From contig JABVCE010000012.1 of NCBI GenBank assembly GCA_014905635.1, positions 434,001 through 498,000 of the forward strand: a DNA stretch of 64,000 nt. Direction: 5' to 3'. Position 1 is the stretch's first letter, and the number at the start of each line of letters is the position of its first letter. Both the position numbers and the translations under genes were made by a program. Shown here piece after piece: positions 1-56,074 of this stretch. The DNA comes from Scenedesmus sp. PABB004. Its lineage: Eukaryota. The notes below the pieces were generated by a model, which saw nothing but the letters and a program-made list of their open reading frames with translations, did not search any database and was not told the origin of the DNA.

Positions 1-2289
1 TGTGGAGCGAATTCGTGCTCAAGGAGTCTGGTGCGCCGCCTTGGCCGCGCCTCGCCCGTCGCGCGCGCGTCGGCAGTCTGGCAGTCGCAGCGGCGCTGCC
101 CGCGCTGCCCGCGCCTGCGCCCGCGCCCGCGCCGTGCGCCCACGCGACCGCGCGCCCGCGCGCCCGCGCAGGCTGCGGGCTGCCGCCGGGGCCGTATGGC
201 CTGGTCGGCGCGGCGGAGGGCCTGAGCTACCTCGCCGTGCTCGGCTTTGCCGGCGCCGGCCTGTCGGCGCGCGCGGGCAGTGGCGGCCGCGCCGGCCTGC
301 CCGGCGCGCTCGCGGTGCCGGAGACGCTCGCGTACGGCGCGCTCGCGGCGGGCCTGTTCGTGCTCGCCAGCCAGGTGCGCGCCTTGCCAGCCACTCGCAG
401 CGCAGCGGGCGGCGCGCGCGCCGGGGGTGGGCCGTGGGGGCGCCCGGGGGCGGGAGCGCCGTGTGGTGCAGCGCAGCGCGGCGCGGCGCGCTCACGCCGC
501 CCGCCGCGCCGCGCCCGCTCACGCCGTCGCAGCTGCAGCAGTATGGCTACATCCCGCCGCCGCTGCCGGGCGGCCAGTGCTACGGCGACGCGGCGGTCGC
601 GCTGCCCGGCGGCGACGCGCTCGCGGCGCAGCTCGGCGCGCAGCTGACGGCGCTGCAGGCGCTGCTGTCGCAGCTGCGCTCGGCCGCGGCCGACGGCGTC
701 GACTCGCTCGCGCTCGCGGAGCAGCTGTCGGCGCTGCAGGCGCAGGCGGACGCGTTCTCGGCCTACGTCGGCGCGAGCGCGGCCGACGTCGACGCGGGGC
801 TGCGCGCGGGCTTTGCGAGCCTGCAGGACTCGCTCGCGAGGGCGACGGACGCGGTGCGCGCGTACGCGGAGCTCCAGCTCGGCGCGCTGGACATCCCCGG
901 CAAGCTCTCCTCCGTGCTCGACACGATGCGCCGCCAGGAGGCGGTGCTCGCGGCGGAGCTGCCGCGCCAGCTGGACGAGCTGCGCGCGCTCGCGGCGCAG
1001 AGCGCGGCGGTCGTGAGCGAGGCCGCGCTCGCGGCGTCGAGCGCGGCGCACCTGCCCGAGCTGCTCGCGGGGCTTGACCGCAGCATGGCGGTGCTGCACG
1101 ACGTGCTCGAGGCGCGGATCGGCGCGCTCGACGTCATGCTCACCTCCCTGCACGACAGCTGCGCGTCCGCGGCGGCGCAGCTCGCGGCCGCGAGCGCGGC
1201 CGCGGCCGCGGCGGGCAGCGCCGAGGTCGCGGCCGCGCTCGGCGACCTGCAGGCGCTGCTCGGCGGCGCGATGGCGCAGGTGCAGGAGCAGGTGTGGGCG
1301 GGGTACCAGTCGCTCGCGCTCGCCGACCACCTGAGCGAGACGCTCGTGTCGGTGCGCCTCTCGGCCGCCGAGCTCGCGGCCGCGGGCGGCGCGGAGGTCG
1401 ACAAGCTGCACCTCCAGGAGCAGCTCACCCAGCTCGAGGCGATCGCGGGCGCGAGCGTCGACGCGCTCGCGGCGAGCACGGGCAGCGCGCTCGCGCAGCT
1501 CGAGCTCGAGGCCCGCCTGGGCGAGATCGAGGCCGCCGCGGCGTCCGCGGCGGCCAGCGTGTCGGCGGGCCTGAGCGAGCAGGCCGCGCGGCAGCTGCCC
1601 GCGCTGCAGGCGCAGCTCGGCGACCTGCAGGACAGCCTCGCCGCGGGCGCGGCGTCCGCGCAGGCGGGGCTCGCGCGCAGCGCGCCGCAGCTCGAGGCGC
1701 TGCTGGAGCAGCTGCAGGCGAGCATGGCCGCGACGGCGGCCGCGGTCAGCGAGGTCGCGGCGGCGGGCGCCGACGCGACCGCGGCGCGTCTCGCCGCGAC
1801 GGGCGCGAACCTGGCGGAGCTGTCCGACAGCGTCGGCGCGTACGCCGCGACCGCGGCCGCGGCCGGCGCGGGCGCCGCCGCCGACGCGGGCTCCAACCTC
1901 GCGCAGCTGTCCGACAGCGTCGGCGCGTACGCCGCCGACGCGGGCTCCAACCTGTCGGAGCTGTCCGACAGCGTCGGCGCCTACGCCGCGACCGCGGCGA
2001 CCGCGGCCGCGGCCGGCGCGGACGCCGCCGCGGCGGCGCTCGGCGCCGCGGCCGACGCGGGCGGCCCGGTGCTGGGGGCCTCACCGAGGCCGCGGCGGAG
2101 GGCTTTGCGGCGCTGCCCGCCGACGCGGCGGTCGGCCCGGCCGGCGCCGCCGGCGCGCCGCTCGTGAGCGCGCTGCCGCCCGCGGCGCTGGAGGACCTGC
2201 GCGCGGCTGAGACGTACGTCGCCGGCGCCATCGACCTGCGCGACGCCAGCGACGCAATCAAGGAGATCTGGGCCAACCGCCCGCAGTGA
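1..2289 (+). CDS. 5'-truncated conserved plant/algal membrane protein (At3g18050-like GCGLPPGP...EGLSYL...GYIPxPLPGxQCYG domain) with a long Ala/Leu-rich helical C-terminal extension
   Basis: Exons <1-30, 172-374 and 533-2289 with GT-AG introns give WSEFVLKESGCGLPPGPYGLVGAAEGLSYLAV...LQQYGYIPPPLPGGQCYG. An apparent 1-nt frameshift lies in the G-run at 2074-2078, before ...AIKEIWANRPQ*. Family recognised from memory. Confidence 0.65.
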
Positions 2290-3536
2290 GGCCCGGCCCC
2301 CGCCCAGGGGACGGCGCGGAGATGCCCCGCCCGCCGGGGCCGGCCCGGCCGCGGCGGCGGGTGTGCATGGGGTGGGTGGGGGACGGGGCCAGGACCGACC
2401 GACCAACGACGCCCGACGCATCGGGGCACGCGCGCCGCGCGGTGCGCGGTGCGCGCCGCGCGCGCGCGCCAGCGCAACGCACCATGCACGCAGCTGTGTA
2501 CATTCAACGCCAACACCACACGCGCTCACACTTGTACGCCGCGCGACGGCGGCGTGGGGGGCTGGGGACGGGCGACGCGGGGGCCGGGGGCGGGGTGGCC
2601 GCACTGCACACGTGAACAGCACCGCGGCGGGGCCTGGGCGGCGGGGCGGCGGCGCGTGCGCCGCCGCACATTATTACGCGCCCCGGTCCGCTTGCTTCGT
2701 AGTACTTTGTCTGGCGCCGTCCGCCTGGGCTGCTGCGGGGCTGCGAGAGAGTCGTGCGTGCGGGGGCGCCTGCGGCGTGCGTGCGTGGGCTCGCGCGGGC
2801 GCGCGGCGCCTGGCCTGGCCTGACCTCGCGGTGAGGGAGCGGTGCGTGCTGCACGCTTGCCCGCTGCGGCTGCAGTCGCACGCGCCGCATTCGCGTGCGC
2901 GACGCACAGCCGCTGCGCCCCCGCCGCGCGGGCCGAGCTGCAGCGCGGCACTGCACCGCCGCCGCGGTCGCGCCTGCCGGGCGCGCCGCGCGCACGGCTG
3001 GCTGGCTGTGGGAGCGTTTGTTGCGTGTTGGGAGGGAGGGCGCGGCGGCGGCCGGGGCGGCGCCGCGGGTCGGCGCCGGGGGCGGACGGTTGTGCCTGTC
3101 TTGTCTGTCTTGTCTTTTGATCGCACGCGCGCGCGACCGCTGGGGGGCAACCACCGCCATAGACCAACGACGGCGACACGGCGCGGCGGCCAGACCGGGC
3201 CGGGCGCGCGATGTACCATTCTTGCAACCGACCCGCACTGCGACCGTCGCCGCGCCCGCCCGGCAGCCGCGGCACGCGGGCGGCGGCGCAGGGCCCAGGG
3301 CGCAGGCGCCGCCCGGCCGGCTGCCCGCGCCACCGCCGAGGAGCCCCCCCCCCCCCCGGCTTGCGCGCCGCCCACCGCCCACAGCCGTACCTCAGCGCCC
3401 CTGCCGCCACGCCACAGGGCGGGGGGCGGGCGCCGCGCGCTGCTGCTGCTGCGCTCACGCCGCCCGCGCGCTCGCCCGCTGCTGCCGGTGCCCCGCCTGC
3501 TGCTCCCTGCTGACCTGCGGGCTGTCAGGTGGAACC

Positions 3537-4543
3537 ATGTCTGCTGCGCCGGCGGGCAAGCGGCGCGCCGGGCCGACCACGCGCGCGCGTGCGGCGGCCG
3601 CAGCAGCGGCAGGCGAGGCGCTGGCTGGGGTGGAGGCGGCGGCGAGGTGTGGGTCCGCTGCTGCTGCTGCTGGTGCTCTCTGGCTGGTGCTGCCCGGCGC
3701 CGCACGCGCCGCCCACAAGCCACCGCCGCCAGCAGCAGGCGCCGCCTGACCGCTCGCCGCCCGCCCCGCCCGCTGCGCCGCGCCGCCAGCAGCCTGTGGG
3801 GGGACCTGCCTGAGCCCCTCGTGCTCCGCGTCCTGAGCTTCCTGCCGCCGGCCCTGCGGGCGTGGGCTGCCAAGCTGGTCTGCAAGGCGGCGCGCGAGCG
3901 CTTCCGCGGCGCGACGGCCGTCTCGCTGCGCTGCCCCGAGCTGCCGCTGGAGGCGGTGCAGGCGGCGTGGCGGGCAGTGCGAGACGGGGCAAAGTGGCAG
4001 CAGCTGCGGCTGGCCAGGGCACGCGCGGCGTGCGGCGACGTGGCAGGGCTGGCCTGGCTGCGCGGCGCCGGCTGCGTCATGGGCCGCGTGTTTGACAGAG
4101 ACAGAGAGATTAATGTGGACGGCGTGTGCTGGACAGCAGCGTCGCACGGCCAACTCGCCGTGCTGGAGTGGGCGCGCGACCAGGGGCTGGACCTGGAGGG
4201 CGTGTGCCGCGGAGCAGCCTCTGGCGGGCACATGACGGTGCTGCGCTGGGCGCGCACGCAGTCGCCGCCGCTGCCCTGGACTGACGACCTCGTGTGCTGC
4301 GACGCCGCGGCGCGCGGCGACCTGGAGATGCTGCGCTGGTTGCGCACCCAAGCCCAGCCCGCGCCCTGGAGTGTCTGGACGTGCCAATATGTGGGAGCGC
4401 GTGGGCACCTGGAGGTGCTGCGCTGGCTGCGCGCCAACGGCTGCCTGTGGCGGCGCGACGCGTGCGAGCGCACGGCGGCACTCAAAGGCCATGAGGCCAT
4501 GGTCGCGTGGATCCAGGCGCAGCCCGCGACGCCGGACGACTGA
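3537..4543 (+). CDS. F-box-like/ankyrin-like repeat protein, cassette A (intact)
   Basis: Exons 3537-3646 and 3790-4543 (phase-2 GT-AG intron with CTGAC branch point). MSAAPAGKRRAGPTTRAR..., F-box-like LPEPLVLRVLSFLPP..LVCK, repeats of VCxxAAxxGxLxVLxWAR. Confidence 0.8.
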
Positions 4544-5403
4544 CTCTGACTCTGGCGGTTCCGATTAAATCAGCTCGGTTGCACTGGGATTAGGGCGAGG
4601 CGAGGCAGGCCCGTGACTGGGCACGCGTGCGTGCGGGGCGCTGCCTGCGGCATGGTGCGCGCGCGTGGCGAAGGAGAGGGAGAGGGAAGTTGGCGGCGGC
4701 GGGGCGGCGCATGCTGGCAACCGGCCGACCGCGCACGCAGCGCGCCTGGGCGGGTCGCGGTCCTGTGCCGTGCCCTAGCGGCGGCACGTCGCCGCGCCGC
4801 GCCCGCCGGGCAGCCGCGGCGCGGGGGCGGCGGTGCAGGGCCCAGGGCGCAGGCGCCCCCTTGCCCGCGCCGCCGCCGAGGAGCCCCCCCCCCCGGCTTG
4901 CGCGCCGCCCACCGCCCACAGCCGTACCTTAGCGCCCCTGCCACACACGCACACGCACGAGCGCCGGCCGCGCCGCCCACAGCTCCCGCACGCGCCGCGC
5001 GCCGCCGCCGCACCGCGCCCGCCCCCTCGCCCGCGGCGCACCCCTGGCCAGGCGGGGCGCGGACCTACGGGCGCCTGGTGACTAGCTCGTGCCGCCCAGC
5101 GCAGCGCCAGGCGAGCCGTGCGCGCGCGGGCAGGCGGTGAGCAGGCAGCGGCGGCGGGCGTGCAGCGCTGCGCGGCGCCCGCTGCGGGCGGCGGGGGTGC
5201 GCGGCGGGCGGGCGTGTGGCGTGGGCCGCCGGGCCTGCGCGCCCCGGGCGTCGCTGGCGGGCCCGCCGCCGCGCCGCCGCGCCGGGGCGGGGGCACGCGC
5301 CGCGCGCTGCTGCTGCCGCGCTCACGCCGCCCGCGCGCTCGCCCGCTGCTGCCGGTGCCCCGCCTGCTGCTCCCTGGTGGCCCGCAGGCTGCCAGGTGGA
5401 ACC

Positions 5404-6341
5404 ATGTCTGCTGCGCCGGCGAGCAAGCGGCTCGCCGGGCCGACCACGCGCGCGCAGGCGGCGGCCGCAGCGGCGGCAGGCGAGGCGCTGGCTGGGGCAG
5501 AGGCGGCGCCGAGGTGGGTCTGCTGCTGCCGCTGGTGCCCCTGGCTGCTGCTGCCTGGCGCCGCACGCGCTGCCCACGAGCCACCACCGACGGCAGCAGG
5601 CCCGGCCTGACTGCTCGCCGCCCGCCCAGCAGCCTGTGGCGGGACCTGCCCGAGCCCCTCGTGCTCCACGTCCTGAGCTTCCTGCCGCCGGCCCTGCAGG
5701 CGTGGGCTGCCAAGCTGGTCTGCAAGGCGGCGCGCGAGCGCTTTCGCAGCGCCAAGCGTGTCTCGCTGCGCTGCCCCGACCTGCCGCTGGCGGCGGCGCA
5801 GGAGGCGTGGCCGGCGGTGCAGGGTGACGGGCGGCAGCAGTCACGGCTGGCCAGGGCGCGTGCCGCGTGCGGCGACGTGGCGGGGCTGGCCTGGCTGCGC
5901 GGCGCGGGTTGCGACCTGCGCGGTGTGTGCTGGCAAGCAGCGGAGCACGGCCAGCTCGCCGTGCTGGAGTGGGCGCGCGGCGAGGGGCTGGAGCTGTGGA
6001 GCGTGTGCACGGGCGCAGCCGTGGGCGGGCACCTGGGCGTGCTGCACTGGGCGCGCGCGCAGACGCCGCCGCTGCCCTGGGGCAACGTCGTGTGCTTCTG
6101 GGCTGCGCAGCGCGGCGACGTGGAGATGCTGCGCTGGGCGCGCGCCCAGGCCGAGCCCGCGCCGTGGGATAGGGAGGTGTGCATGTTTGCGGCTGTGCAC
6201 GGGCACCTGGAGGTGCTGCGCTGGCTGCGCGCCAACGGCTGCCCGTGGTGGCGCGATTTGTGCGAGCGCACGGCGGCACGCGCGGGCCACGAGGCCGTGG
6301 TCGCGTGGATCCGGGCGCAGCCCGCGGCGCCGGACGACTGA
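5404..6341 (+). CDS. F-box-like/ankyrin-like repeat protein, cassette B (intact)
   Basis: Exons 5404-5513 and 5630-6341. Same architecture as A; ends AQPAAPDD*. Confidence 0.8.
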
Positions 6342-7213
6342 CTCTGACTCTGGCGGTTCCGATCAAATCAGCTCGGTCGCACTGGGATTAGGGCGAGGCG
6401 AGGCAGGCCGATGGCTGGGCGCGCGTGCGTGCGGGGGGGCGCTGCCTGCGGCCTGGTGCGCGCGTGCGCGTGTGGCGAGGGAGAGGGAGAGGGAAGTTGG
6501 CGGTGGGGAGGCAGCGCGTGCTGGCAACCGGCCGACTGCGCGCGCAGTGCAGCTGGGCGGGTTGCACTCCCGCGCGTCGCCCGCCGCTGGCGGTGGCGGC
6601 AGCACGTCGCCGCGCCGCGCCCGCCCGGCAGCGGCGGCACGCGGGCGGCGGCGCAGGGCGCAGGGCGCAGGCGCCGCCCGGCCGGCTGCCCGCGCCGCCG
6701 CCGAGGAGGCCCCGTGCGCGCGCCGCCCACAGCCGCCCACAGCCGCCGCCCGCAGCCCCCCTGCCACACGCACGCACAAGCACATTACACGCCGGCCGCG
6801 GCCCTCATCGCTCCTGCACGCACCGCGCCGCCGCCGCGCAGCGCCCGCCCCTGCCCGCGGCGCGCCCTGGCCAGGCGGGGCACGGCGCCTGGTGACTAGA
6901 TCGTGCCTCCCAGCGCAGCGCCAGGCGAGCCGCGCGCGCGGGCGGGCGGGGAGGGCAGCGGGGGGCGGGCAGCGCTGCGCGGCGCCCGCTGCGGGCGGCA
7001 GGGCCACCGGCGGTGCGCGGCGGGCAGGCGTGCGGCCTGGGCAGGGGAGTCTGCGCGCCCCTGGCGCCGCTGGCAGGCCCGCCGCCGCGCCGCCGCGCCG
7101 GGGCGGGGGCGGGCGCCGCCCGCTGCTGCTGCAGCGCTCACGCCGCCCGCGCGCTCGCCCGCTGCCGGCGCCGACTGCTGCTCCCTGGTGGCCCGCAGGC
7201 TGTCAGGTGGCAG

Positions 7214-8266
7214 CTGTCTGCTGCGCCGGCGGGCAAGCGGCACGCCGGGCCGACCACGGGCGCGCGGGCGGCTGCAGCGGCGGCAGCGGCAGGCGAGGCG
7301 CCTGGCGGCGCGGACGCGGCGCCGAGGTGGGTCCGTCGCTGCTGATGCTGCTGCTGGCCCACCCTGGCTGGTGCTGCCTGGCGCGGCACGCGCTGCCCAC
7401 AAGCCACCACCGCCGGCAGCGGCGGCGCCTGACCGCCGCCCGCCTGCCCGCCCCACGCGCCCGCCGCGCCCCGTGCCGCCAGCAGCCTGTGGGGGGACCT
7501 GCCCGAGCCGCTCGTGCTCCACGTCCTGAGCTTCCTGCCGCCGGCCCTGCAGGCGTGGGCTGCCAAGTTGGTCTGCAAGACGGCGCGCGAGCGCTTCCGC
7601 GGCGCCACGGTCGTCTCGCTGCGCTGCCCCGAGCTGCCGCTGGCGGCGGTGCGGGAGGCCTGGCGGCCGGTGCGGGGTGGCGATCCGTGGCAGCAGCTGC
7701 AGCTGGCCAGGGCGCGTGCGGCGTGCGGCGATGTGCCGGGGCTGGCCTGGCTGTGCGGCGCCGGCTGCGACATGCACAGTGGCGTGTGCTACGAAGCAGC
7801 GAAGCATGGCCATGTCCCTGTGCTGGAGTGGGCACGCGACCAGGGGCTGGACCTTCGGGACGTGTGCCACGACGCAGCTTATGGCGGCCAGCTGGGTGTG
7901 CTGCGCTGGGCGCGCGCGCAGACGCCGCCGGTGCCATGGGACGGCATGGAGTGCTGGCACGCTGCGGAGCGCGGCGACCTGGAGATGCTGCGCTGGGCGC
8001 GCGCCCAGGCCGAGCCCGCGCCGTGGAACAGCGAAGTGTGCTGCGTGGCCGCTGAGAACGGGCACCTGGAGGCGCTGCGCTGGCTGCGTGCCAACGGCTG
8101 CCCGTGGCAGCGCATGCAGTGCGAGGACGGGGCGTTTGTCCTTGGCCACGAGGCCGTGGTCGCGTGGATCCGAGCGCAGCCCGTGTCGCCGGACGACGGC
8201 CCTGTCTGGGACGACATCCGCAATGCCGCCATAAGAACAATGCAGTCACTCACTAACATACTCTGA
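7214..8266 (+). pseudogene. F-box-like/ankyrin-like repeat gene, cassette C; start codon ATG changed to CTG (pseudogene or non-AUG start)
   Basis: The position homologous to the ATG of other copies reads CTG TCT GCT GCG. Exons 7214-7326 and 7483-8266 are otherwise in frame, with an extended tail DDGPVWDDIRNAAIRTMQSLTNIL*. Confidence 0.6.
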
Positions 8267-8712
8267 ATCGCCGGGTGCTGGCGGCGGCGGCACGTCGCCG
8301 CGCCGCGCCCGGCAAGCCGCGCACCGTGCGGGCGGCGGTGCAGGGCGGCGGTGCAGGGCCCAGGGCCCAGGGTGCCGCCCGGCCGGCTGCCCGCGCTGCC
8401 GCCGAGGAGGCCGCCCGCGCGCTTGCAACTTCTCTGCCACCATCTCAGGGCTGAGCTGCCGCCGACACGGGCAGGACGCGCCGCGCGCGAGCAGCGCACG
8501 CGCCTCGCTCGCCCAGCGGCGGCGCGCGGAGGAGCGGCCGCAGGGGTGGGGCAGCTCGGGCGCGGCACTCGCCAGCTCTAGCAGGGGCACGCGGGGCGGG
8601 TCGCGCTGCAGGCTGCCCGCGGGGCTGGCGCCAGCAATCGCGACCAGCTGGCGGTTGCCGGCGCCGGGCGTCGCGCCCGGGCGGGCCCCGCTCACCGGTG
8701 AACGCGCTGCTG

Positions 8713-17665: not shown

Positions 17666-18222
17666 CCCGCCCCGCGCCGTCGGAGGCGCGCGCGGCGCGG
17701 CGGCGCCCGCGCGCGGCGCCGCGCGGGCGCGGCGCGGCGGCGGCGGCAGCAGCGCGGCGCGCGCCGGCGCAGCAGCGGCGGCGGCGGCGGCAGCTGGGGC
17801 GGGGAGCTGGCGCCGGCGCCGGCGCATGACGCGGCTACCACGGCGCAGGCGCGCGCCCCGGCTAGGCTAGGCCGGGGCAGCAGCAGGCGGGCGAACCGGG
17901 CTAGCGAGCGCTCGCTCGCTAGCGAGCGAGCGGGGGACGGAGGGGGTCCTCTCTGCACTTGGGCACGCACGCATCGCTCGGTGGCGGCCCGCGCGGCCAG
18001 CCGCGGCGCCGCCTGCGCGCGGTGAGCGCCCGGCCGCCGCCGCGTCTCTCTTTTTGTCTTGCGTCGCGCGCAGCGCGCCGCTGGGCGGCGGCTGCAGCGA
18101 GCGGAGCGGCCGCTGCTGCTGCAGCGCCTGCGTACGGAAGGGGGCGCGCGCGAGGGCGGGAGGGGGGAGGCAGCAGGTAGAGGGCCCGAGCGGTTTAATC
18201 CAACGTGCGCGATGCAGTTGGG

Positions 18223-26943: not shown

Positions 26944-27140
26944 CCAAACGAACACCGACAGAACACCAGCCGCCCACCAAACACCCAGCCGACCGCCATC
27001 GCCAAACCAAACACTGACCGACTGCCAAACCACCGGCGACCAAACACCAACCGACCGCCAAACCACCGCCAAACCAACCACCAACCGACCGCCAGCCGAC
27101 CGCCAACGCCGAACCAACCACCAACCGACCTCCAGCCGAC
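26944..27140. repeat. A/C-rich degenerate short-unit repeat tract (CCAAAC/ACCGACC/CCAACC)
   Basis: Direct reading. The + strand is almost T-free and compositionally distinct from the flanks. Confidence 0.75.
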
Positions 27141-28306: not shown

Positions 28307-28397
<91 letters not shown>

Positions 28398-34940: not shown

Positions 34941-34980
34941 ACGGCAGTTGCCCGGCGCGCCCGCGCCCCGCGCCGCGCGG

Positions 34981-37900: not shown

Positions 37901-39143
37901 AGCAGGCCCGCCGGCGCGCCGCCGCCGCCGGCCGCAAGCGCGGGCCGCAGCAGCGCGGCCGCCGCGGCGCAGAGCACGCCCGTCCACGCCGCCTCGGCGT
38001 CGGCGCCGAGATGGCTGCGCACCACAGCGCCGAGCGGCGCCGCGTCGGCGGCCGCCTGCGCGGCGGCGGCGGCCTCCGGCCACGGCTGCGCGGCGCCGAC
38101 GGCGCCGCCCCCGGCGGCGGCCGCCGCTGCCGCCAGCCCCAGGTTTCGGTGCTCCGCCTCCAGCGCCGGCAGCACCGTGCCCTGCAGCTGCTGCAGCAGC
38201 AAGCGCAGCAGCTGCGCCGCGGGCTGCGCGCCGGCGCCGCTGCCGCTGCCGGCGTCGCGGCACGCGCCCAGCAGCGCCACCGCGGCCTCGCACGCGCGCA
38301 CCGCGGTGCCCTGGCTCAGCAGCGCGCCCGACAGCGCCTCGAGCGCCTCCGGGTGCGCCTCCAGGCCGCGCGGCGGCGCGCCGAGCTCGCACCACGCGGC
38401 GAGCGCGTCGCACGCGAGCGCCGACAGGCGGGGATTGCCGCTGCAGAGTGCCGCGCGCAGCGCCGGCGCCGGCAGGCTGCTCTGCGTGAGGCCGTCGGCG
38501 ACCGCGGTGCGGCGGTCGGGGTGCACCGACGTCGCCTTGCCCAGCGCCGCGCCCGGCAGCGCCGACAGCAGCTGCAGCAGTGCCGCAAGCGCGACGGGGT
38601 CGCGCGCGAGGTGCACGCCCAGCGTCGACTGGCTCGCCGCACTCGCCGCCGCCGTGGCCGCCGCAGCCGCCGCGACGGGCGCCGGCAGGAGCAGCGGCTG
38701 CAGTTCCTGCAGCAGCGCGCCGGGCTGCAGGCTCGGCGCGCGAACCGCGAGCGCCGCGGACGCCGCCGCGAGCTGCGCCGCCGGGGCCCACCACTCGCGC
38801 GACAGGCAGGCGCGCGCGTGCGCCGCGAGCGCGGCGAGCAGCGCGCGCAGCGTGCCGGGGTCGAGCACGTCCTGCTGCTTCAAACAGAGCGCGTGCAGCG
38901 CGTTGGCCGCGAAGAAGGCCGCCTGCTCCGTCGCCGCCGCGTCCAGCAGCGCCAGGCAGCCGCGCCACGCGCCCGGCGACGCGCGGAACGCCTGCAGCCA
39001 CGCGTCCGCGGGGCGCGCGCTGCGGGCGGCGGCGGCGGCGGTCGGCGGCGGCGGCGCTGGACCGCGTGCCGCACCTCCGCGTCCAGCGCCTCACCTCTCG
39101 GTGCCGCTGTACAGCGAATACACGGCGGCCTGCAGCTGCGCCA

Positions 39144-39190
<47 letters not shown>

Positions 39191-40978: not shown

Positions 40979-41477
40979 GGCGGCAGCTGCAGGGCCGCGG
41001 GCGGTCGGCGCAGCGGCGGCGGCCACTCGTTTGCGGCACGCGACGTGGCGGGCTGCGTCGTGGCTGGTGACGTGGGAGTTCCGCTTGAGAGCACAAGGCG
41101 CGCGGCGTGGAGGCAATTGGGTGCTCCTCCGCGCCGGCGCGGCGCGCAAAAGCGCTCGTGACGGCGCTGCTGTCACGTGTGGTCCCTCGCGCTGCCGCGA
41201 GCGTTCGCCCCGCACGAGAGCCCGCTCACGCCGTTATCGGAAGCTCCGCAGCGCCTCTGCGTCGCAGGCGACGCAGAGGTTGCGGCCATCTACGCGCTGC
41301 TGCTCCGCGCTCGGGGACCGACCGATCCCCGCGCCCCGGCTGGCACAGGTCCAAGCCCGGCCCGAGCGCGCCGGCGGCGCCGCCGCCCGCCGCCGCGCGG
41401 CAGCGGCAGCAGCGGCGGCGGCGGTTGGGCGCGCCGCTGCTGCGCTCGCCGCCGCTCGCGCGCGGGCCGCGCTGGCG

Positions 41478-44421: not shown

Positions 44422-45167
44422 CGGCGGCGGCGGCGGCGCGCCGCGCTCAGGAGCAGCGCTCGGGGGAGCGGCCGATTCTTTGCACATAGGGCGGCGCGCC
44501 GGGCTGAGACACTGCCCGCTGCGCCGGAAGTGTTCATGCAACGTCTGCCACGCTGGCTGGGCGGCGGCGACCGGCGGTGCAGGGCCCAGGGCGCAGGCGC
44601 CGCCCGGCCGGCTGCCCGCCGCCGCCGAGGAGCCCCCCCCCCCCCCCGCGTGCCGCCCACAGCTGCCCACAGCCGCCTCCCCCCCTGCCACACACGCACA
44701 AGCGCCGGCTGCACCGCCCACAGCGCCCGCACGCACCGCGCCGCCGCCGCCCAGCCCCCGCCCCCGCCCACGGCGCGCCCCTGGCCAGGCGGGGCGCGGA
44801 TCCGCGCCCCGTCCGGACCTGCGGGCGCCTGGTGACTAGGCCGTGCCGCCCAGCGCAGCGCCAGGCGAGCCGGGCGCGCGGGCAGGCGGGGAGGGCAGCA
44901 GCGGCGGCGGGCGGGCCGCGCCGCGCGGCGCCCGCTGCGGGCGGCGGGGGCTGCGGCGGTGCGCGGCGAGCGGGCGTGTGGCCTGGGCCGCCGGGCCTGC
45001 GCGCCCCGGGCGCCGCTGGCAGGCCCGCCGCCGCGCCGCCGCGCCGGGGCGGGGGCGGGCGCCGCGCGCTGCTGCTGCTGCGCTCACGCCGCCCGCGCGC
45101 TCGCCCGCTGCTGCCAGTGCTCCGCCTGCTGCTCCCTGGTGGCCCGCAGGCTGTCAGAGGCGGTGCC

Positions 45168-46149
45168 ATGTCTGCTGCGCCGGCGGGCAAGCGGCGCGAG
45201 GCGGCGGCGCGCGGCGAGGAGGCGAGGTGGGCGCGCAGCCGTTGGCCAGGCGGGCGCTGAGCACGGGCCAGCAGCCGCAGCGCGCGCCGCCCCACCGCTG
45301 GCCCGCCGCCGTGCCCCCCCCCCCCCCAGCAGCCCGCCGCCGGACCTGCCCGAGCCGCTCGTGCTGCACGTCCTGGGCTTCCTGCCGCCGGCCCTGCGGG
45401 CGTGGACCGCCAGGCTGGTGTGCAAGGCGGCGCGCGAGCGCTTCCGCGGCGCCACGGTCGTCTCGCTGCGCTGCCCCGAGCTGCCGCTGGCGGCGGTGCA
45501 GGAGGCGTGGCGGGCGGTGCAGGGTGCCGGGTTAACCCTGCAGCGGCCGCAGCTGATCGGGGCGCGCGCGGCGTGCGGCGACGTGGCGGGGCTGGCCTGG
45601 CTGCACTGGGCCGGCTGCGGCATGGGCGGCGTGTGCTTGCAAGCAGCGGAGCACGGCCAGCTCGCCGTGCTGGAGTGGGCGCGCGGCGAAGGGCTGGACC
45701 TAAAGGAAGTTTGCAAAGCAGCAGCATGGCACGGGCAGCTCGCCGTGCTGGAGTGGGCGCGCGACCAGGGGCTGGACCTGCGGGACGTGTGCTGGGCAGC
45801 AGCCGGGGGCGGGCACCTGGATGTGCTGCACTGGGCGCGCGCGCAGGCGCCGCCGCTGCCGTGGGGCGACAACGTGTGCTCCTGGGCTGCACGGCGCGGC
45901 GACCTTGAGATGCTGCGCTGGGCGCGCGCCCAGGCCGAGCCCGCGCCGTGGGGCGAGCACGTGTGCTGCGTGGCGGCTCAGTTTGGGCAGCTGGAGGTGC
46001 TGCGCTGGCTGCGCGCACACGGCTGCCCCTGGTGGCGCGGCGAGTGCGAGCGCAAGGCGGCACTCTACGGCCGCGTGGCCGTGGTCGCGTGGGTCCGGGC
46101 GCAGCCCGCGTCGCCGGACGATGGCCCTATCGTTGGCTTTTTTGGCTGA
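45168..46149 (+). CDS. F-box-like/ankyrin-like repeat protein, cassette H (intact, one extra repeat)
   Basis: Exons 45168-45226 and 45330-46149. Two consecutive GQLAVLEWAR repeats; tail DDGPIVGFFG*. Confidence 0.8.
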
Positions 46150-47014
46150 AGCTCGGACGCGGACCTCGATTGGGGCGAGGCAAGGCGGGCCCGTGGCTGG
46201 GCGCGCGTGCGTGCGCGGGGCGCTGCCTGCGGCCTGGTGCGCGCGTGCGCGCGTGGCGAGGAAGAGGGAGAGGGAAGTTGGCGGCGGCGAGGCGGCGCGT
46301 GCTGGCAACCGGCCAACCGCGCACACAGGGTGGCTGGACGGCCTGCGCTCCCGCGCCGTCGCTGGGCACTGACAGCTGCGGCACGTCGCCGCGCCGCGCC
46401 GCGCCCGCCCGGCAGCGGGGGCACGTGGGCGGCGGGCCCAGGGCGCAGGGCCCAGGCGCCGCCCGGCCGGCTGCCCGCGCCGCCGCCGAGGAGGCCCCCC
46501 ACGCGCGCCGCCCCGCTGCCCACAACCGCCACCCTCAGCGCCTCCCTGCCACACGCACACGCGCACAAGCGCCCGCCGCGGCCCTCACAGCTCCCGCACG
46601 CACCGCGCCGCCGCCGCCCAGCGCCCGCCCCCGCCCGCGGCGCGCCCCTGGCCAGACGCGGCGCGCCCCTGCGGGCGCCTGACGGTCGGGCCGTGCCGCC
46701 CAGCGCAGCGCCAGGCGAGCCGGGCGCGCGGGCAGGCGGGGAGGGCAGCAGCAGCGGCAGGCGGGCCGCGCTGCGCGGCGCCCGCTGCGGGCGGCGGGGG
46801 CACCGACGGTGCGCGACGGGCGGGCGTGTGGCGTGGGCCGCCGGGCCTGCGCGCCTCGGGCGTCGCTGGCGGGCCCGCCGCCGCGCCGCCGCGCCGGGGG
46901 GGCCCGGGCGCCGCGCTCTGCTGCTGCTGCGCTCACGCCGCCCGCGCGCTCGCCCGCTGCTGCCGGTGCCCCGCCTGCTGCTCGCAGGTGGCCCGCAGGC
47001 TGTCAGGTGGCGTC

Positions 47015-47995
47015 ATGGCCTCGCTGATAGAGCATTCGCTCAGCTGTCTGACGCTGGAGGGCGCACCGAGGTGCGTGTGCTGCTGATGTTGACGCCCCTA
47101 GCCGGCACCCCTGGCTGTTTTGAGCCTGGGCGCGCGGCACTGGCGACGAGGCGAGGTGTTGCCCCATGGCTGCTGCTGCCTGGCGCTGCACGTGCTGCCC
47201 GCAAGCCACCGCCGCCGGCAGCAGGCGCCGCCTGACCGCTCGCCCTGCCCGCCCTGCTCGCCCCGCACGCCCGCCGCGCCCGCCCGCGCCGCCAGCAGCC
47301 CGCTGCCAGAGCTGCCCGAGCCGCTCGTGCTGCACGTCCTGAGCTTCCTGCCACCGGCCCTGCAGGCGTGGGCTGCCAAGCTGGTCTGCAGGGTGGCGCG
47401 TGAGCGCTTCCGTGGCGCCACGGTCGTCTCGCTGCGCTGCCCCGAGCTGCCGCTGGCGGCGGTGCAGGAGGCCTGGCGGGCGGTGGGGATTGATGAGGAG
47501 CAGCAGCGCCAGCTGTCAGCGGCGCGCGCGGCATCCGCCGACGTGGCGGGGCTGGCCTGGCTGCGCGGCGCCGGCTGCGACATGTGGGCCGCATGCTCGG
47601 CAGCAGCGGAGCACGGCCACCTCGCCGTGCTGGAGTGGGCGCGCGACCAGGGGCTCGACCCAGGGGACGTGTGCTGGGCAGCAGCTCAGGGCGGGCGGCT
47701 GGATGTGCTGCGCTGGGCGCGCGCGCAGGCGCCGCCGCTGCCGTGGGGCGACAACGTGTGCTCCTGGGCTGCGCAGCACGGCGACCTGGAGATGCTGCGC
47801 TGGGCGCGCGCCCAGGCCGAGCCCGCGCCGTGGGACCGGGACGTGTGCTGGCGGGCGGCTGAGTACGGGCAGCTGGAGGCGCTGCGCTGGCTGCGCGCAA
47901 ACGGCTGCCCCTGGTGGCGCGGCGAGTGCGAGTTCCTGGCAGCCAGCAACAGCCACCAGGCCGTGGTCGTGTGGATCCGGGCACAGCCTGAGTGA
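47015..47995 (+). CDS. F-box-like/ankyrin-like repeat protein, cassette I (intact, alternative exon 1)
   Basis: Exons 47015-47070 (MASLIEHSLSCLTLEGAP) and 47296-47995. Confidence 0.8.
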
Positions 47996-48626
47996 GCTGG
48001 CGTCGGCTTTGGCGGCGCGTGGCGAGGGAGAGGGAGAGGGAAGTTGGCGGCGGGGCAGCGCGCTGGCAACCGGCACAGCCCAATTGAGTCGCCGTCGGCT
48101 TCTGCCGCGACCGGCGGTACGGGCCCAGGGCGCAGGCGTGGGGCACGTGCCGCCCGTTGCATCGCGGCTGTTGCACTGCAGGCGAGAAAGCAGTGCAGTG
48201 CCGTGGCGGCGCCGGGTCGCATGTCGGCGCGCTGAGGGCCCGCCGTCGAAAAACAGCGCGCGCCGCTGCGGGGGCCATCACTGGACGACCCCCCTCTCCG
48301 TCGCCCCTCGCTCCCTCGCCGCCCGGTGGAACGCCGGCCCGCGCGCCGTGCGCGGCGCCGCCCCTCCCCCAACACAACGTGCGCGCGGCGCGCGCCGCCG
48401 CCGCGCTGCCCCTCTGCGGGGCTGCCGCGCGGCGGCACGGCGGCAGCAGGGGCCGCCGCTGCGGCCGCTCGCGCGCCGCTCGCTCGCGCCGTGGCGGGCC
48501 ACGCGGCGGCCTCACCCAACGGGCGGCCGCATCATCAGGTCTCTTCATCAGGAGGCCTCATCCGCAGGCCTGATCAGGCCTCATATCCATCAGGGGGGCC
48601 CCATCAGGCCTCACCAGGCGGCCCCA

Positions 48627-51192
48627 TCAGGCCGCGGGCTTGCGGGCAAGGAAGAAGAACAGCGGCGTGAAGGTGCCTGGCGCGCGGCGGGCGCAGCGCG
48701 CGGCGCGGCGCACCGGCGTGAGCAGCGCGGCGGCCCGTGCGCCGCCCGCGGCAGCGGCGGCGCGGCCACGGCGCGCGCGGGGCGGGGCGGCCCGCCGCGC
48801 CGCCGCGCCGCCGCACCGGTCTTGCCGCCGGCGACGAGGCCGTCCGCCGCGCGCTCGAGCATGCTCGCGACCTCGAGGCTGCCCTTGGGCGCGAGGCCGA
48901 GGCGCTCCAGCGCCTTGACCATCACGTGCGTCACCCGCCGGCCCAGCTTGGTCGTGCGGAAGTCTGGCGGGCACAGGGAGGGCGGCGGGCGGCGCGCGCG
49001 GCGCGGCGGCACGTCGGCCGGCGCGGGTGCGGCAGCGCGGCGGCTCGCCGCCGGCGCGGCGGCCGCTTCGCGCGGCGGCGGCGGGCACGGTGGCTCGCGC
49101 GGCGCCCGGCCTCACTCTGCAGCCGCGTCCAGTTGTCGGGGTCGACCGGGTCCCACCAGGGGATGTCGGCGGTCGTCGCGAGGTCGCAGCTGTCCAGCAG
49201 CTCAAAGCCCGCCGCCTTCAGCGCCTCCAGCGTCTGCGCCGTCGTCCTGCGGCGGCGCGCCCGCGGCGTCGGCGGCGCGGGTCGCTCGGCGGCGCGCCCC
49301 TGCCGCCGCGCCCGCCACCCGCGCCCCGCCCCCCGCTGCAGGCCGCCCGTCCGCCTCTCACCCTCCCCGCCTCGCGCACCCCCCCCCCTCCCTACCCCCT
49401 GCAGCTGCTTCCTCTGTCCCCCGCACACGCGACCACAACACTACTCCACCACACCACTACTCCGCACGCACCGCACGTCGGGCAGGCCGTTGCCGAGCTC
49501 AATCTCGGCCATAATGCTCCGGTGCGCCGCGTTGCCCGGGTCGTACGCGTCCGTCGCGCACCACTCGTACCCGGCAAAGCACTGCCCCGGCTTGAGCACG
49601 CGCAGGATCTCCTTGTAGCACCCCACCTGCGCGCGCGCGCGTGAGCTTTGTGTGAGCTTTGTGTGTGAGTGTGAGTGTGTGTGTGTGTGAGTGTGAGTGT
49701 GTGTGTGTGTGTGGGGGGGGGGGACCAACGCGGCCGCGGCGCGCACCTGGTCGGGCGCGTGGCACGTCGCGTCGATCTGCGGCGACGCGCGGCGGCGGCG
49801 CGGGCGTCGGCGCGCCGCCGCTGCGCACGCTCCCGCGCGCGCTCCCGCGCCGCAGCGCCCGCGCGGCGCCCGCGCCGCCGCCGCCGCCGCCGCCGCGCCG
49901 TGCCTGGTAGACTGCGTCGAAGCTCCCGTCCTCAAAGGGCATGGCCATGAAGTCGGCCTTGACAAACTTGGACAGCCCGTCGAGGCTGCGCCCCGTGCGG
50001 CCGTTGTGGTAGAGCGCGCGGCTGATCTGGTACGCGTTGTTGTTCACGCCTGGGCGGAGGCGGCGCGGCGGGGGGCGCGAGCCCGGTGCGGCGTGACGCG
50101 GCGGGGGCGTGGCGGGCGCGGCGGGCACCGGCCGGCGGCCGGCGGCCGCGGCGCGCGCTCGTGCAGCGCGCGCGCTCGTGCGGGGCACCGAACAGCTGCG
50201 GCGCGCCGCGCACCCGTGACGTGCGCGCCCGAGAACAGCGCGATCTCGCGCAGCGGCCCGCCGATGCCGCAGCCGACGTCGAGGCACGTGTCGCCTGGCG
50301 CACGACCGCGGCGCGACGCGGCGGCGGAGGGCGCGCGGCGGCGTCAGAGGCGGCGGCGGCGGCGGCGGCGGCGGCGCCGCCAGCTGCCGGCCCCGGCGCC
50401 GCGCCGCGCCGCTGCGGCCGGTGCGGCCAGCCCCACGGCGGCGGCGCCGCACCAGGCTTGAGGCCGAGGCGCAGCGCGAGGTAGTGCTCGTGGCGGCGGA
50501 TGCTCTCCACGTGGCTCTCGTGCTTCAGGCGGTGCGCAAAATGGAACGACGTGCCCCACCCTGCGCGCCGCACCCGCGCCGCCGCCGGCGCGGGGCGCGC
50601 GTGGGCCGCCGCACCTGCCGCCAGCGGCCGTGCGCGCTGTGCGAGCGCACGCCCCGGCTGCGCCGCCGCCGCGCTCACCGTACTCGTAGAAGCTCGTGGC
50701 CAGGTCGTAGTACTTGTTGACCATGTCGGCGTACTGCTTCTTGCGCGCCTCCACATCGCCGCCGTGCGTGGTGTGGTATTTCTGCGCGCGCGGGCGCGCG
50801 GCGGCAGCGGCGGCGGCACGGCGGGTGGCGCCGCTGCGCGCGGCGCGCCTGGCGAGCCCGGGGCTTGCGCGGCCCTCTGTCCTCGCCACGACGCGCTGCC
50901 GCTGGCCCCGTCCCGGCGGCGCGCCAGGCGCGTGGGCGACGCTGATGGCGCGGCGCGCCCTCCCCCCTCCATCGCCGCGCTGGCGCCGCCAGCGACCGCA
51001 GGCGCGGGCCGTCGTGGACGGCGCCGCTGCGGGCTGGGCGTATCGGCATCGCCGGGCGCCCCGCGGGGCCTGTGGCGCGCGAGCGGGTTGGGGCTGACCC
51101 GCGCGCACCTCGTAGGAGTCGATGGAGTCGGCGATTCTGTCAGCCGACTGGCTGCTGATGTTGGGCGTGAGCATGGCCGCCGGCGTCGTCAT
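48627..51192 (-). CDS. SMT1: Sterol C24-methyltransferase (cycloartenol SMT / ERG6 family)
   Basis: [94 protein letters not shown]. Multi-exon. Confidence 0.95.
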
Positions 51193-52941: not shown

Positions 52942-52962
52942 CCTCTGGCCGGGTTAAGGGGC

Positions 52963-53296: not shown

Positions 53297-54306
53297 TCAA
53301 AAATCAAACAAATAATCAAGTCCAGGGCCGTCGTCTGCCGCCGCGGGCTGCGCCCGGATCCACGCGACCACGACCTCGTGCCCGCTGCGTGCCGCCGCGT
53401 ACTCGCACTCGCCGCGCCACCACGGGCAGCCGTTGGCGCGCAGCCAGCGCAGCGCCTCCAGGTGCCCGTGCGCTGCCGCCCCCCTGCACGCGCTCTTGCC
53501 CCACGGCGCGGGCTCGGCCTGGGCGCGCGCCCAGCGCAGCATCTCCAGGTCGCCGCGCTGAGCAGCGTAGTAGCAAACCCCATAATCTGAGCCACCCCAC
53601 GTCAGCGGCGGCGCCTGCGCGCGCGCCCAGCGCAGCACACCCAGCTGGCCGACCATGGATGCGTCCTCGCACACGCGCTCCAGGTCCAGCCCCTGGTCGC
53701 GCGCCCACTCCAGCACGGCGAGCTGGCCGTGCTCCGCTGCAGCGTAGCACACGCCGCCCATGCCGCAGCCGGCGCCGCGCAGCCAGGCCAGCCCCGCCAC
53801 GTCGCCGCACGCGCCGCGCGCGCTGGCCAGCCGCAGCTGCTGCCAGGTTGCCCCGTGTCGCGCCGCCCACCAGGCCTCCTGGACCGCCGCGAGCGGCAGC
53901 TCGGGGCAGCGCACCGAGACGACCGTGGCGCCGCGGAAGCGCTCGCGCGCGGCCTTGCAGACCAGCCTGGCGGCCCACGCCTGCAGGGCCGGCGGCAGGA
54001 AGCTCAGGACGTGGAGCACGAGGGGCTCGGGCAGCTCCGGCAGCAGGGCGCTGGCTCGGCGGGGCGGGCGGGGCGGCGGGGCGGGCGGCGAGCGGTCAGG
54101 CGGCGCTGCTGCCGGCGGTGGCGGCTTGTGGGCAGCGCATGCGGCGCCAGGCAGAAGCAGCAGCCAGCGGGCACCAGCAGCAGCCAGCGGACCCACCTCG
54201 GCGCCGCCTCCGCGCAGCCGGGCGCGTCGCCTGCGGCGGCTCCGGCCGCGGCGCGCGCGCGCGTGGTCGGCCCGGCGCGCCGCTTGCCCGCCGGCGCAGC
54301 AGACAT
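53297..54306 (-). CDS. F-box-like/ankyrin-like repeat protein, cassette J (intact); cassette extends to about 54883
   Basis: Exons 54306-54197 and 54050-53297; tail DDGPGLDYLFDF*. Boundary motif at 54857-54883. Confidence 0.8.
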
Positions 54307-54910
54307 GGTGCAGCCTGACAGCCTGTGGGCCACCAGGGAGCAGCAGGCGGGGCACCGGCAGCAGCGGCGAGCGCGCGGGCGGCGTGAGCGTGGCAGCAGC
54401 AGCGGGCGGCGCGCGTCCCCGCCCCAGCGTGTCCGCGCGGCGGCGGGCCTGCCAGCGGCGCCCGGGGCACGCAGGCCCGGGTGATCACCCAACACGCCCG
54501 CCCGCTGCGCACCGCCGGTGCCCGCGCCGCCCGCAGCGGGCGCCGCGCAGCGCGGCCCGCCCGCTGGCGCTGCCCTCCCTGCCTGCCCGCGCGCACGGCT
54601 CGCCTGGCGCTGCTCGCGGCGGCACGGCCTGGTCACCAGGCGCCCGCAGGTCCGTGCCCCGCCTGGCCAGGGGCGCGCCACGGGCGGGGACGGGCGCTGC
54701 GCGGCGGCGGCGCGGTGCGTGCGGCCGCTGTGGGCGGCCTGCCGGCGCTTGTGTGCGTGTGTGGCAGGGGCGTTGAGGGCGGCGGCTGTGGGCGGCGGGG
54801 CGGCGCGCGCGCAGGGGGCCTCCTCGGCGGCGGCGCGGGCAGCCGGCCGGGCGCAGCGCCTGCGCCCTGCGCCCTGCACCGCCCGCCCGCCCGCTGCCGA
54901 GCTGCACAGC

Positions 54911-54915
54911 TTACA
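54911..54915 (-). terminator. Candidate chlorophyte polyadenylation signal TGTAA for the calmodulin-like gene
   Basis: TTACA on the + strand, about 270 bp downstream of the CML stop. UGUAA is the known Chlamydomonas-type signal. Confidence 0.45.
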
Positions 54916-55184
54916 CCCGGGCGCCGCGGCGCCAATCAAATGCAGTCCTGGGCCGCTCCCTCCGGGCGCGCGCTGCGTGTCTCAACAGCGCCGCCGCGAG
55001 CCGCGAGCCGCCGCCGCGCCGCAGCCGGGCCGCGGGGGCGCCCAGCGCCAGGCCTGATGTACACCGCCGCCCACCCGCGCCCGCGCCCGCGCTGGCGCGC
55101 CCCGCCGCGCCCTGCACCTGCAGCGCGCCGCCGCCCGCGCGCGGCGCGTCGCTCCGTGTTCGCCGGCCGCGCGTTGCGGGCTCT

Positions 55185-56074
55185 TCACTTTGCGAGCAGC
55201 ATGCGCACAAACTCCTCGTACTGGATCTTGCCGTCCGCGTCGGGGTCGGCCTCCTTGATCATGTCCTCCATCTCCTGCAGGGCCGGGCAGGGCAGGGCCG
55301 GGCGGCGGCGGCACGCGGCGCGGCGCTCGGCATGCTGGGGTTCAGGATGCGGGCGGCGGCGGCGGGCGGCGGCGGGCGCGCGGGCGCGCCCGCCGGGGCG
55401 GCGCGGCGGCGCACCGGCGCGCTGAGCTTCTCGCCGATGTTGGTGAGCACGTGGCGCAGCTCCTTGGCCTCGATCCAGCCGCGCTGGTCCTTGTCAAACA
55501 CCTGCGCGGCGCGGCGCGGCGCGGCGGCGGTCGCGGCGGCCGCTGCGGCGCGCCCGCGCTGCCGCCCGCGCCGCGCCGCGCCGCGCGCGCCTTCCAGGCG
55601 TTGCGGATGTCGCTCTCCGAGTCGTAGCTGCGGATGTCACGGGCCATGACGCCGAGGAACTCTGCGGCACCCGATTGGGGGCGAGCGCAGCAGCGGCGCC
55701 GCCGCGGCGTCGGCGGCCACCGATGCGGGCCGCGTCGCCGCCGCGGCGCGGCGCGCATCGCCCTGCATCGCCCCCGACCGCGCCCGGCGGCCGGGCGCCG
55801 GGCCGCGGCACGGCGGCGCCCCGGCGGCCCCAACTGCCGGGGGTTGGCCCGCGCCGCCGCCGGCGCGGCGCGCACCCTGCAGGTTGACCACGCCGCGGCC
55901 GTCGGGGTCGATCTCCTTGACCAGGCCCGTCACCTCCGCCTCGGTGGGGTTCTTGCCGAGCGCCCGCATGACCGTGCCGAGCTCGCCGGTGGTGATGCAG
56001 CCGTCGTTGTCCTTGTCGAACAGCGCGAACGCCTCCTTGGCCTCCGCCGTCGCGGCGTCGGTGAGCGGCGCCAT
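55185..56074 (-). CDS. Calmodulin-like EF-hand protein
   Basis: [34 protein letters not shown]...[26 protein letters not shown]...[19 protein letters not shown]. Four exons; diverged from canonical calmodulin. Confidence 0.92.

Follow-up and report, generated by a model that had tools for sequence, protein, structure and literature searches.

The 64,000-nt stretch of the Scenedesmus sp. PABB004 genome analyzed here (contig JABVCE010000012.1, positions 434,001 to 498,000, forward strand; hereafter the window) contains a repeated gene unit, the cassette, every locus of which lies behind an unrelated gene on the same strand. Self-BLAST and alignments across the window reveal ten copies in seven loci, A to G, with a unit of 1.7–1.86 kb. 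The unrelated ordinary gene on the 5′ side of a cassette is called its host, and distance is taken from the host stop codon to the start of cassette homology. All seven loci are co-oriented with their hosts and begin 35–958 nt past the stop, as the original prediction had proposed, and a more robust form of the rule is that no cassette places its 5′ end against that of a host. At ~1.8 kb, the cassette makes up a whole, self-contained gene unit. We tentatively favor, with confidence a little short of even, the view that this unit is self-promoted, duplicates as DNA locally and in arrays, undergoes gene conversion, and is kept only at host 3′ ends.

From 5′ to 3′ a unit comprises a linker of ~150 nt that starts GCAACCG(G/A)CCGACC, the conserved motif GGCGGTGCAGGGCCCAGGGC, a non-coding 5′ flank of 560–610 nt, a short coding exon 1, a phase-2 intron of ~170–190 nt, exon 2, and a short 3′ flank. 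Unit-to-unit spacing is 1700–1859 nt in five intervals and 1547 nt at the deletion-bearing A1, and the main BLAST alignments against copy A2 show 77.5–85.6% identity. Perfect matches to the 20-nt motif number 12 in the window, each at a unit start or in a terminal stub, and the 15-nt linker word GGCAACCGGCCGACC is matched six times, always in connection with a cassette. The copies and their terminal stubs are as follows.

3222-8426, + strand: array A, units A1 to A3 and a terminal stub.
3222-4715, + strand: unit A1; internal deletion in the 5′ flank; ATG 3537, exon 2 3785-4540, stop 4541-4543.
4716-6522, + strand: unit A2; full unit, beginning GGCAACCGGCCGACC; motif 4829, ATG 5404, stop 6339-6341.
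6523-8283, + strand: unit A3; ATG lost (1-nt deletion, 7214); exon 2 intact, stop 8264-8266.
8284-8426, + strand: terminal stub of array A; partial linker, motif (8347) and 79 nt past the motif.
18190-19813, − strand: unit B; motif 19810, ATG 19200; 1-nt frameshift in the ankyrin part (~18600); without linker, without stub.
25463-26752, − strand: unit C; fragment with the F-box part deleted and the 3′ end truncated; 5′ remnant of the GCAACCGACC linker.
29614-31603, − strand: unit D; full linker on both sides; 3′ stub of motif (29645) plus 36 nt; ATG 30914, stop 29934-29936.
33086-34953, − strand: unit E; 3′ linker and stub (motif 33155 plus ~70 nt, by BLAST); ATG 34355, stop 33447-33449.
44572-46303, + strand: unit F1; ATG 45168, stop 46147-46149; one extra ankyrin repeat.
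46304-48138, + strand: unit F2; ATG 47015, stop 47993-47995; linker behind it shortened, stub degenerate (26 nt, 48113-48138).
53297-54897, − strand: unit G; motif 54883, ATG 54306, stop 53297-53299; without linker, without stub.

The seven host stops identified previously are correct, each ending an open reading frame (ORF) with coding signal. Pfam lends support to five of the hosts (leucine-rich repeat (LRR), EAF, importin/TNPO3-type repeat, GH1 and EF-hand), and gene 1 and host2 have no informative family.

485-2289, + strand: host gene 1, Ala-rich and coiled-coil-like; stop 2287-2289, 958 nt before A1.
20434-23335, − strand: host gene 2 (host2), no Pfam family; stop 20434-20436, 620 nt before B.
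27180-29284, − strand: LRR-like host, weak Pfam match (E ~0.0015, below cut-off); stop 27180-27182, 462 nt before C.
31639-33028, − strand: EAF-family host, Pfam E 2.8e-4, below cut-off; stop 31639-31641, 35 nt before D.
34981-39190, − strand: importin/transportin-like host, importin/TNPO3-type repeat; stop 34981-34983, 40 nt before the E motif.
41349-44421, + strand: GH1 beta-glucosidase host; stop 44419-44421, 150 nt before F1; last intron from 44145 (GTGCGT).
55185-56077, − strand: EF-hand (calmodulin-like, CML) host; stop 55185-55187, 287 nt before G.

The distances from A to G are 958, 620, 462, 35, 40, 150 and 287 nt, and the interval from host stop to cassette ATG is 625–1247 nt. Two loci had been placed within ~40 nt of a host stop, which D (35 nt) and E (40 nt) bear out; with gaps this short the host 3′ untranslated region (UTR) must either extend into the cassette or hardly exist. 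Of the ~1950 nt that separate the importin stop from the EAF ATG, all but ~90 are cassette DNA. A TGTAA ~30 bp ahead of the start of G, to which the original prediction had drawn attention, carries no weight, as the window holds two against 2.2 expected; TGTAA or TGTA was likewise discarded as a polyadenylation signal, the former occurring at chance count and the latter behind only 4 of the 18 stops checked.

The gene map of the window, built from coding-potential segments and Pfam scans, reads as follows from position 1 onward.

Gene order, first part: gene 1 (+), A1–A3 (+), TSP1/EGF (+), unnamed gene (−), UBC-fold (+), B (−), host2 (−).
Gene order, after host2: C (−), LRR-like (−), D (−), EAF (−), E (−), importin-like (−), SDR (−).
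Gene order, after SDR: GH1 (+), F1–F2 (+), sterol methyltransferase (−), HD (+), G (−), EF-hand (−), large gene (+).

It might be supposed that chance or strand clustering placed the copies as they are, that fused gene models are annotation artifacts, and that there is no rule. The original prediction had put seven co-orientations at 1/128; the count stands, and the independence behind the figure is overstated, since three of the seven loci occupy convergent spacers: B (UEV +/host2 −), F (GH1 +/sterol methyltransferase −) and G (HD +/CML −). Co-orientation there is automatic because any orientation in a convergent spacer scores as co-oriented, a point in favor of chance, as is the modest significance of the tandem spacers alone, where sense placement is found in 4/4 (p = 0.06). 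The tandem class of C depends on disregarding a + strand candidate gene at 24332–24685, between host2 and C (24.1–25.4 kb), which has a weak coding signal and no Pfam match. Against chance, a host–host control finds a co-oriented host on the gene's own 5′ side for 5 of 13 host genes versus 7 of 7 cassette loci (Fisher, one-sided p = 0.010), and divergent spacers are occupied in none of four cases versus seven of nine for the other spacers (Fisher, p = 0.021). The 3′ side of the cassette follows no rule: B, F and G face an opposed host there, whereas the next host at A, D and E, and at C if its spacer is tandem, is co-oriented.

Further evidence comes from the rest of the genome, sampled as the cassette-bearing PABB004 gene models from three protein searches; 28 models were read and their cassettes mapped by BLASTP, and P0063, which is the window's own F locus, was excluded from the outside-window counts. 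The annotated proteins contain 31 further cassette loci, 28 on the 1.24 Mb contig of 1,235,393 nt that also holds the window (locus tags seen from HT031_003954 to 004038), two on a contig of 795,618 nt and one on a contig of 433,685 nt. A host ORF lies ahead of the cassette in the same model at 25 of the 31 (binomial p = 4e-4), a biased lower bound in that fusion needs co-orientation and host–cassette blocks are partly duplicated (two copies of a histone deacetylase (HDAC), two chorismate mutase models); the other six begin a model. The hosts ahead include HDAC-like, aspartyl aminopeptidase, FO synthase, RRP36, BMS1 and tyrosyl-tRNA synthetase genes, among others, and a host stands behind the cassette in the same model at only 10 of the 31 loci. 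Thus the original claim that cassette 5′ ends lie in sense at host 3′ ends holds at 7/7 loci in the window and at least 25/31 beyond it, across the contig, and the asymmetry of 25 loci fused behind a host to 10 in front of one agrees with the window. Fused models over-sample co-oriented pairs, which again helps the case for chance; set against the outside-window count, the 25-to-10 asymmetry and both in-window comparisons, chance is a very improbable explanation.

The fused GenBank models are computer predictions, not transcripts, and many are chimeras. P0063 ('BGL1A', 1240 residues) joins GH1, F1 and F2 (window 41349–48000) at 98.7–100% identity; the other six window loci were not among the cassette-bearing models found. 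GenBank holds at least 24 chimeric host–cassette models (P0024 included), each with one to four cassettes, under names such as 'BGL1A', 'histone deacetylase-like amidohydrolase', 'fbiC' and 'BMS1', and also RRP36 and TyrRS; the HDAC-like model contains a second HDAC copy along with four cassettes. The published count of 7,092 genes is affected by the chimeras and is probably an underestimate, and orthology and gene-family analyses built on these models are affected as well.

The cassette gene has two coding exons and an estimated product of ~290 residues; exon 2 supplies the F-box-like motif together with five or six ankyrin repeats. A start ATG is present in nine of ten copies, A3 being the exception; exon 1 ends CCGAG|GTGGGT in 7/10 copies, with A1, E, F1 and F2 deviating around the site; and exon 2 is open in eight of ten (not B or C). 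Intron length differences between copies are not multiples of three, and the exons are in frame only once spliced. Pfam Ank_4 scores above cut-off in all eight exon-2 proteins, and F-box-like (PF12937) is found in seven of the eight at E 5e-4 to 0.012 (15.8–20.1 bits, below the 24.3-bit cut-off); precomputed PF00646/PF12937 matches are listed for related fused gene models. A structure predicted from a 17-sequence alignment has a mean predicted local distance difference test (pLDDT) score of 82.7, with residues ~55–240 at 82–98, and the best PDB matches of its predicted solenoid are ankyrin domains (Foldseek probability 1.00). The N-terminal 50 residues reach pLDDT 40–65, leaving the F-box fold unconfirmed by the model. 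The open exon 2, the frame that needs splicing, the above-threshold Ank_4 matches and the ankyrin structure match all argue that the gene is real. Its product is predicted to be an ankyrin-repeat protein, the ankyrin domain being modeled with confidence, with a sub-threshold F-box-like motif. In E (34355–34300) and F2 (47015–47080) exon 1 is of a second kind, encoding MASAVEHSLSGL... and MASLIEHSLSCL... in place of MSAAPAGKR.... P0001 and the fourth cassette of P0061 have N-termini resembling these, and the contrast of all four with the MSAAPAGKR... type indicates two exon-1 types in the family.

Protein searches indicate that the family is restricted to this alga, where it numbers ~50 copies, nearly all on the one 1.24 Mb contig, and that relatives elsewhere are at most ~45% identical. 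Among 28 exon-2 pairs the median ratio of nonsynonymous to synonymous divergence (dN/dS) is 0.87 and the proportion of synonymous differences (pS) ranges from 0.05 to 0.24, and the variable residues fall at the same few consensus positions of every ankyrin repeat. Copies are least alike over the ankyrin part (pairwise identity 0.78), against 0.86 for the F-box part and 0.83–0.90 for the 5′ flank. Along the unit, a given copy changes its nearest relative every 100–400 nt, which argues that copies up to 25 kb apart, on opposite strands, exchange sequence. For A2 the best match is C over exon 1 (99%) and D over exon 2 (98–100%), and the tracts 5925–6348 versus 29927–30350 and 5186–5477 versus 26059–26350, on opposite strands and 20–25 kb apart, share 92–96% identity, rising to 100% in 100-column windows, whereas the rest of the units are ~80–85% alike. 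Gene conversion between inverted copies could also drive inversions. Arrays A (three units) and F (two units) are head-to-tail with mosaic similarity, as in the concerted evolution of a tandem gene family. Three of the ten window copies look disabled: A3 has lost its ATG, C has lost the F-box region and most repeats, and B is frameshifted and, from its sequence, likely a pseudogene. Because the gene retains its intron, copying did not pass through processed RNA.

The 5′ flank has the length given above in every copy except A1, where 255 nt are left after the deletion; no ORF in it is conserved across copies, and it shows no 3-nt periodicity. Seven of ten copies have no upstream ATG. The start codon stands in the context CACCATG in four copies, with AACC, CGCC, TGCC or CGTC before the ATG in the others, and a 22-nt block 75–100 nt ahead of it is invariant in all ten. 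The acceptor-like CTGTCAG that the original prediction placed just before the ATG is present in nine of ten copies, A2 having CTGCCAG, and a pyrimidine-rich tract with two CAG|G sites precedes the ATG in all ten. About 230 nt upstream of the CAG|G sites is a donor-like GGCG|GTGCGCGG, found in 9/9 copies that keep the region and matching the GH1 donors; by eye, the stretch between the two is G-rich and then C-rich, like GH1 introns. Another candidate 5′-UTR donor, GTGACTAGG, is broken in E and F2, and GGCG|GTGCGCGG is preferred. Since a conserved donor-like site lies within the cassette, the acceptor-like site can belong to an internal 5′-UTR intron.

In the account that we favor, the unit would be copied as DNA, giving rise to head-to-tail arrays and to nearby single copies on both strands, and the copies would be homogenized by gene conversion. 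Each copy would bring a promoter of its own, housed within linker, motif and 5′ flank, together with a 5′-UTR intron that ends at the CAG just before the ATG. The orientation rule would then reflect where a new gene can land and survive among short spacers, through retention by selection: an insertion beside a host promoter would be lost, and where a co-oriented host lies behind, the copy would end in a second linker–motif piece, the stub, directly ahead of that host. Autonomy is favored by the long 5′ flank that each unit carries, the invariant block, the start-codon context, the lack of upstream ATGs in most copies, the internal donor-like site, and the array-internal copies that have no host ahead of them.

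Several observations weigh on the other side. After the D and E host stops there is no A/T-rich element before the cassette's own 3′ end, and with gaps so short the transcripts of importin and EAF have to terminate within the cassette or run through it. E, F1 and G lack most or all of the linker yet have intact ORFs, so that either the linker is not needed or expression takes another route. Conservation of the 5′ flank is no proof of function, because its divergence is about the synonymous rate (identity 0.83–0.90 versus pS ~0.19). Selection against promoter disruption alone predicts no sense bias in tandem spacers, where sense is found in 4/4, a small count. Finally, no target-site duplication recurs consistently across the seven loci, where shared 8-mers mean little, being common to 66% of random window pairs.

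Some of these observations would be expected if the cassettes were promoterless and depended on host read-through, with the 5′ flank either kept in a bicistronic message or removed by splicing to the CAG, and with only sense copies retained. This possible, though unlikely, explanation draws on the sense position behind a host at 7/7 loci in the window and at least 25/31 outside, on D and E lying 35–40 nt past host stops with no A/T-rich element between, on the importin-E-EAF-D-LRR stretch with almost no non-cassette spacer, on the pyrimidine-rich tract and paired CAG|G sites of all ten copies, and on the intact ORFs of linker-poor E, F1 and G. Polycistronic mRNAs are, as the original prediction stated for bicistronic ones, documented in green algae (PMC7896298). 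However, the hosts here are 0.9–4.2 kb long with 4–14 ATGs and lie 625–1247 nt from stop to cassette ATG, whereas the algal bicistrons described in PMC7896298 and PMC11291117 are short, closely spaced and read by leaky scanning. A, B and C begin 462–958 nt past the stop with several A/T-rich islands between, the array-internal A2, A3 and F2 follow a cassette and not a host, the internal donor-like site can explain the acceptor, and the fused GenBank models, as predictions, do not speak for joint transcripts.

The ends of the units raise a further alternative, namely directed insertion at transcript 3′ ends in fixed orientation, by a non-autonomous mobile element or by a recombination substrate, for instance a circle or an array-derived copy longer than one unit. 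The sharp common 5′ start reported originally is real, and it is in part a product of deletions within the ~150-nt linker: A1, C, D and the array-internal units begin GCAACCG(G/A)CC, E keeps a degenerate 13-nt remnant, and homology in B, F1 and G runs from the motif onward only. Such clustering of 5′ ends speaks for directed insertion, as does the motif start common to B, C, E, F1 and G. On the 3′ side, A, D, E and F continue into more linker and motif and stop 79, 36, ~70 and 26 nt later, so that in a unit of ~1800 nt each of these ends falls 26 to ~80 nt beyond the next motif. The resulting terminal direct redundancy is ~100–290 nt; it brackets A, D and E over ~190–290 nt, is much shorter at F and is missing at B and G. 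The clustering of copies on one contig is also in keeping with it, as is the host 3′-flank A/T-rich element that lies within ~100 nt of the cassette start at A, B, C, F and G. The 8-mer CTTGCAAC occurs at both outer junctions of array A (3220–3228 and 8421–8429), with no other locus alike, and could reflect either target-site duplication or microhomology to the GCAAC with which the unit starts; TGCAAC as a target signature was rejected, occurring 16 times against 16.5 expected.

Against directed insertion, Pfam scans of the window ORFs contain no transposase, reverse transcriptase, Rep/helicase or recombinase domain, and no terminal inverted repeats were noticed on inspection or reported spanning a unit in the self-comparison, which included no formal test. 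The target-site duplication is not consistent across loci, the retained intron leaves no processed-RNA route, and the ends differ from those diagnostic of transposable elements, with a start of GCAACC and not TC and no poly(A) at the ends. Gene conversion could also have sharpened the boundaries secondarily. We consider directed insertion improbable.

Stubs are found at A, D and E, each with a co-oriented host downstream; the convergent loci B and G have none, and F has only the degenerate 26 nt. The A stub ends 287 nt before position 8713, the likely and only ATG ahead of the TSP1/EGF gene. The D stub ends 330 or 92 nt ahead of the LRR-like gene, depending on whether the latter starts at 29284 or 29522, and 57 nt separate the E stub from the EAF ATG at 33028. 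The conserved LRLG...YDFKP N-terminus presumably places this EAF start codon, and the Pfam profile of the family is matched from position 2 onward. This pattern fits a unit with promoter DNA at both ends. It would also be compatible with conversion of the cassette into pre-existing, promoter-like linker–motif modules ahead of hosts, the orientation being inherited from the module, given that the A, D and E units are bracketed by linker–motif copies, that gene conversion between copies is active, and that stubs lie 57–330 nt before host ATGs. However, the window contains no solo linker–motif modules, all 12 motif matches and all six linker matches being in cassettes or stubs, and B, G and F in convergent spacers are left unexplained, which makes this a slim prospect.

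In a further reading of the sequence arrangement, the unit may be a gene cassette of a kind new to eukaryotes, one that inserts in sense at gene 3′ ends and is co-expressed with its hosts, operon-like in importin-E-EAF-D-LRR, or one that serves the preceding gene as its 3′ end and the following gene as its promoter; we regard this as rather unlikely. If either form of it is true, the control DNA between housekeeping genes would, over several hundred kilobases, have been taken over by a proliferating receptor gene, and if co-transcription is true, the range of green-algal polycistronic transcription would be widened to long first ORFs. EAF, and perhaps the LRR-like and TSP1/EGF genes, have only cassette-derived DNA ahead of the start codon, which suggests that a duplicated gene may have replaced host control regions.

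The genomic setting is a compact one, with spacers of 0.1–1 kb and a G+C content of 78–83% throughout the window; Table 1 of PMC12571836 lists 39.8 Mb in 77 contigs for Scenedesmus sp. PABB004, with 7,092 genes, 78.5% GC and 1.31% repeats. Strict-orientation filling of spacers in a compact genome of 78.5% GC offers a tractable case for how new genes find room, and the same case bears on how neighboring genes share or exchange 3′ ends and promoters. Rfam returned no matches to structured RNA, and no tRNAs were found in the window. Simple repeats occur in and near several host genes: a long (GGC)n repeat within the LRR-like gene (28300–28400), (CTG)n runs encoding poly-Q on the minus strand in EAF (31970–32010) and at the importin 5′ end (39125–39190), a (GTGTGG)n-like tract in the last GH1 intron (44190–44260), and a (TG)n tract near the sterol methyltransferase gene (49639–49713). 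In the 3′ flank of the LRR-like gene, ~150 nt at 26882–27032 consist of short repeats resembling GGTTTGG/GGTCGG in the minus-strand reading and form the most A/T-rich stretch of the window. A degenerate repeat of CATCAGG and GGCCTCAT units occupies 48527–48594, in the spacer that separates array F from the sterol methyltransferase 3′ end.

Green-algal bicistrons resemble the present arrangement in having two same-strand ORFs at close range in a chlorophyte, with D and E as near as 35–40 nt past a stop. As described in PMC7896298 and PMC11291117, they have a first ORF with a median of 291–600 nt, a spacer of 40–260 nt and a depletion of ATGs, and are translated by leaky scanning. By contrast, the hosts here span 893–4210 nt of genomic sequence with 4–14 ATGs, and the spacer to the cassette ATG, at 625–1247 nt, would be short only if a host-side donor spliced out the 5′ flank. 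Nematode operons and kinetoplastid units are similar to importin-E-EAF-D-LRR as co-oriented chains with very short spacers; unlike them, this stretch alternates one repeated gene with unrelated genes. Integron cassettes, Helitron and Pack-MULE captures, and long terminal repeat (LTR)-like elements likewise show a one-gene repeat, clustered 5′ ends, terminal redundancy and arrays that share repeats, and the cassettes differ from such gene-carrying mobile DNA in the lack of an integrase, Rep or reverse-transcriptase domain among the window ORFs scanned and in their retained intron.

Another close parallel is with the F-box receptor families of plants and Caenorhabditis, which are lineage-specific and grow by tandem and local duplication. 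Like these, the cassette family is young, species-restricted and clustered, with birth and decay of copies, gene conversion and variable repeat positions. Unlike these, its putative substrate-binding part consists of ankyrin repeats, and its members are interleaved singly with housekeeping genes in strict head-to-tail order, some replacing a whole spacer. Among the papers listed in literature searches we found no account of such an F-box-like/ankyrin family or of this arrangement; the genome's own paper may mention one. A species-restricted, locally growing F-box-type family is of a known kind, and what is new is the one-by-one interleaving with other genes, the head-to-tail rule and the take-over of spacers.

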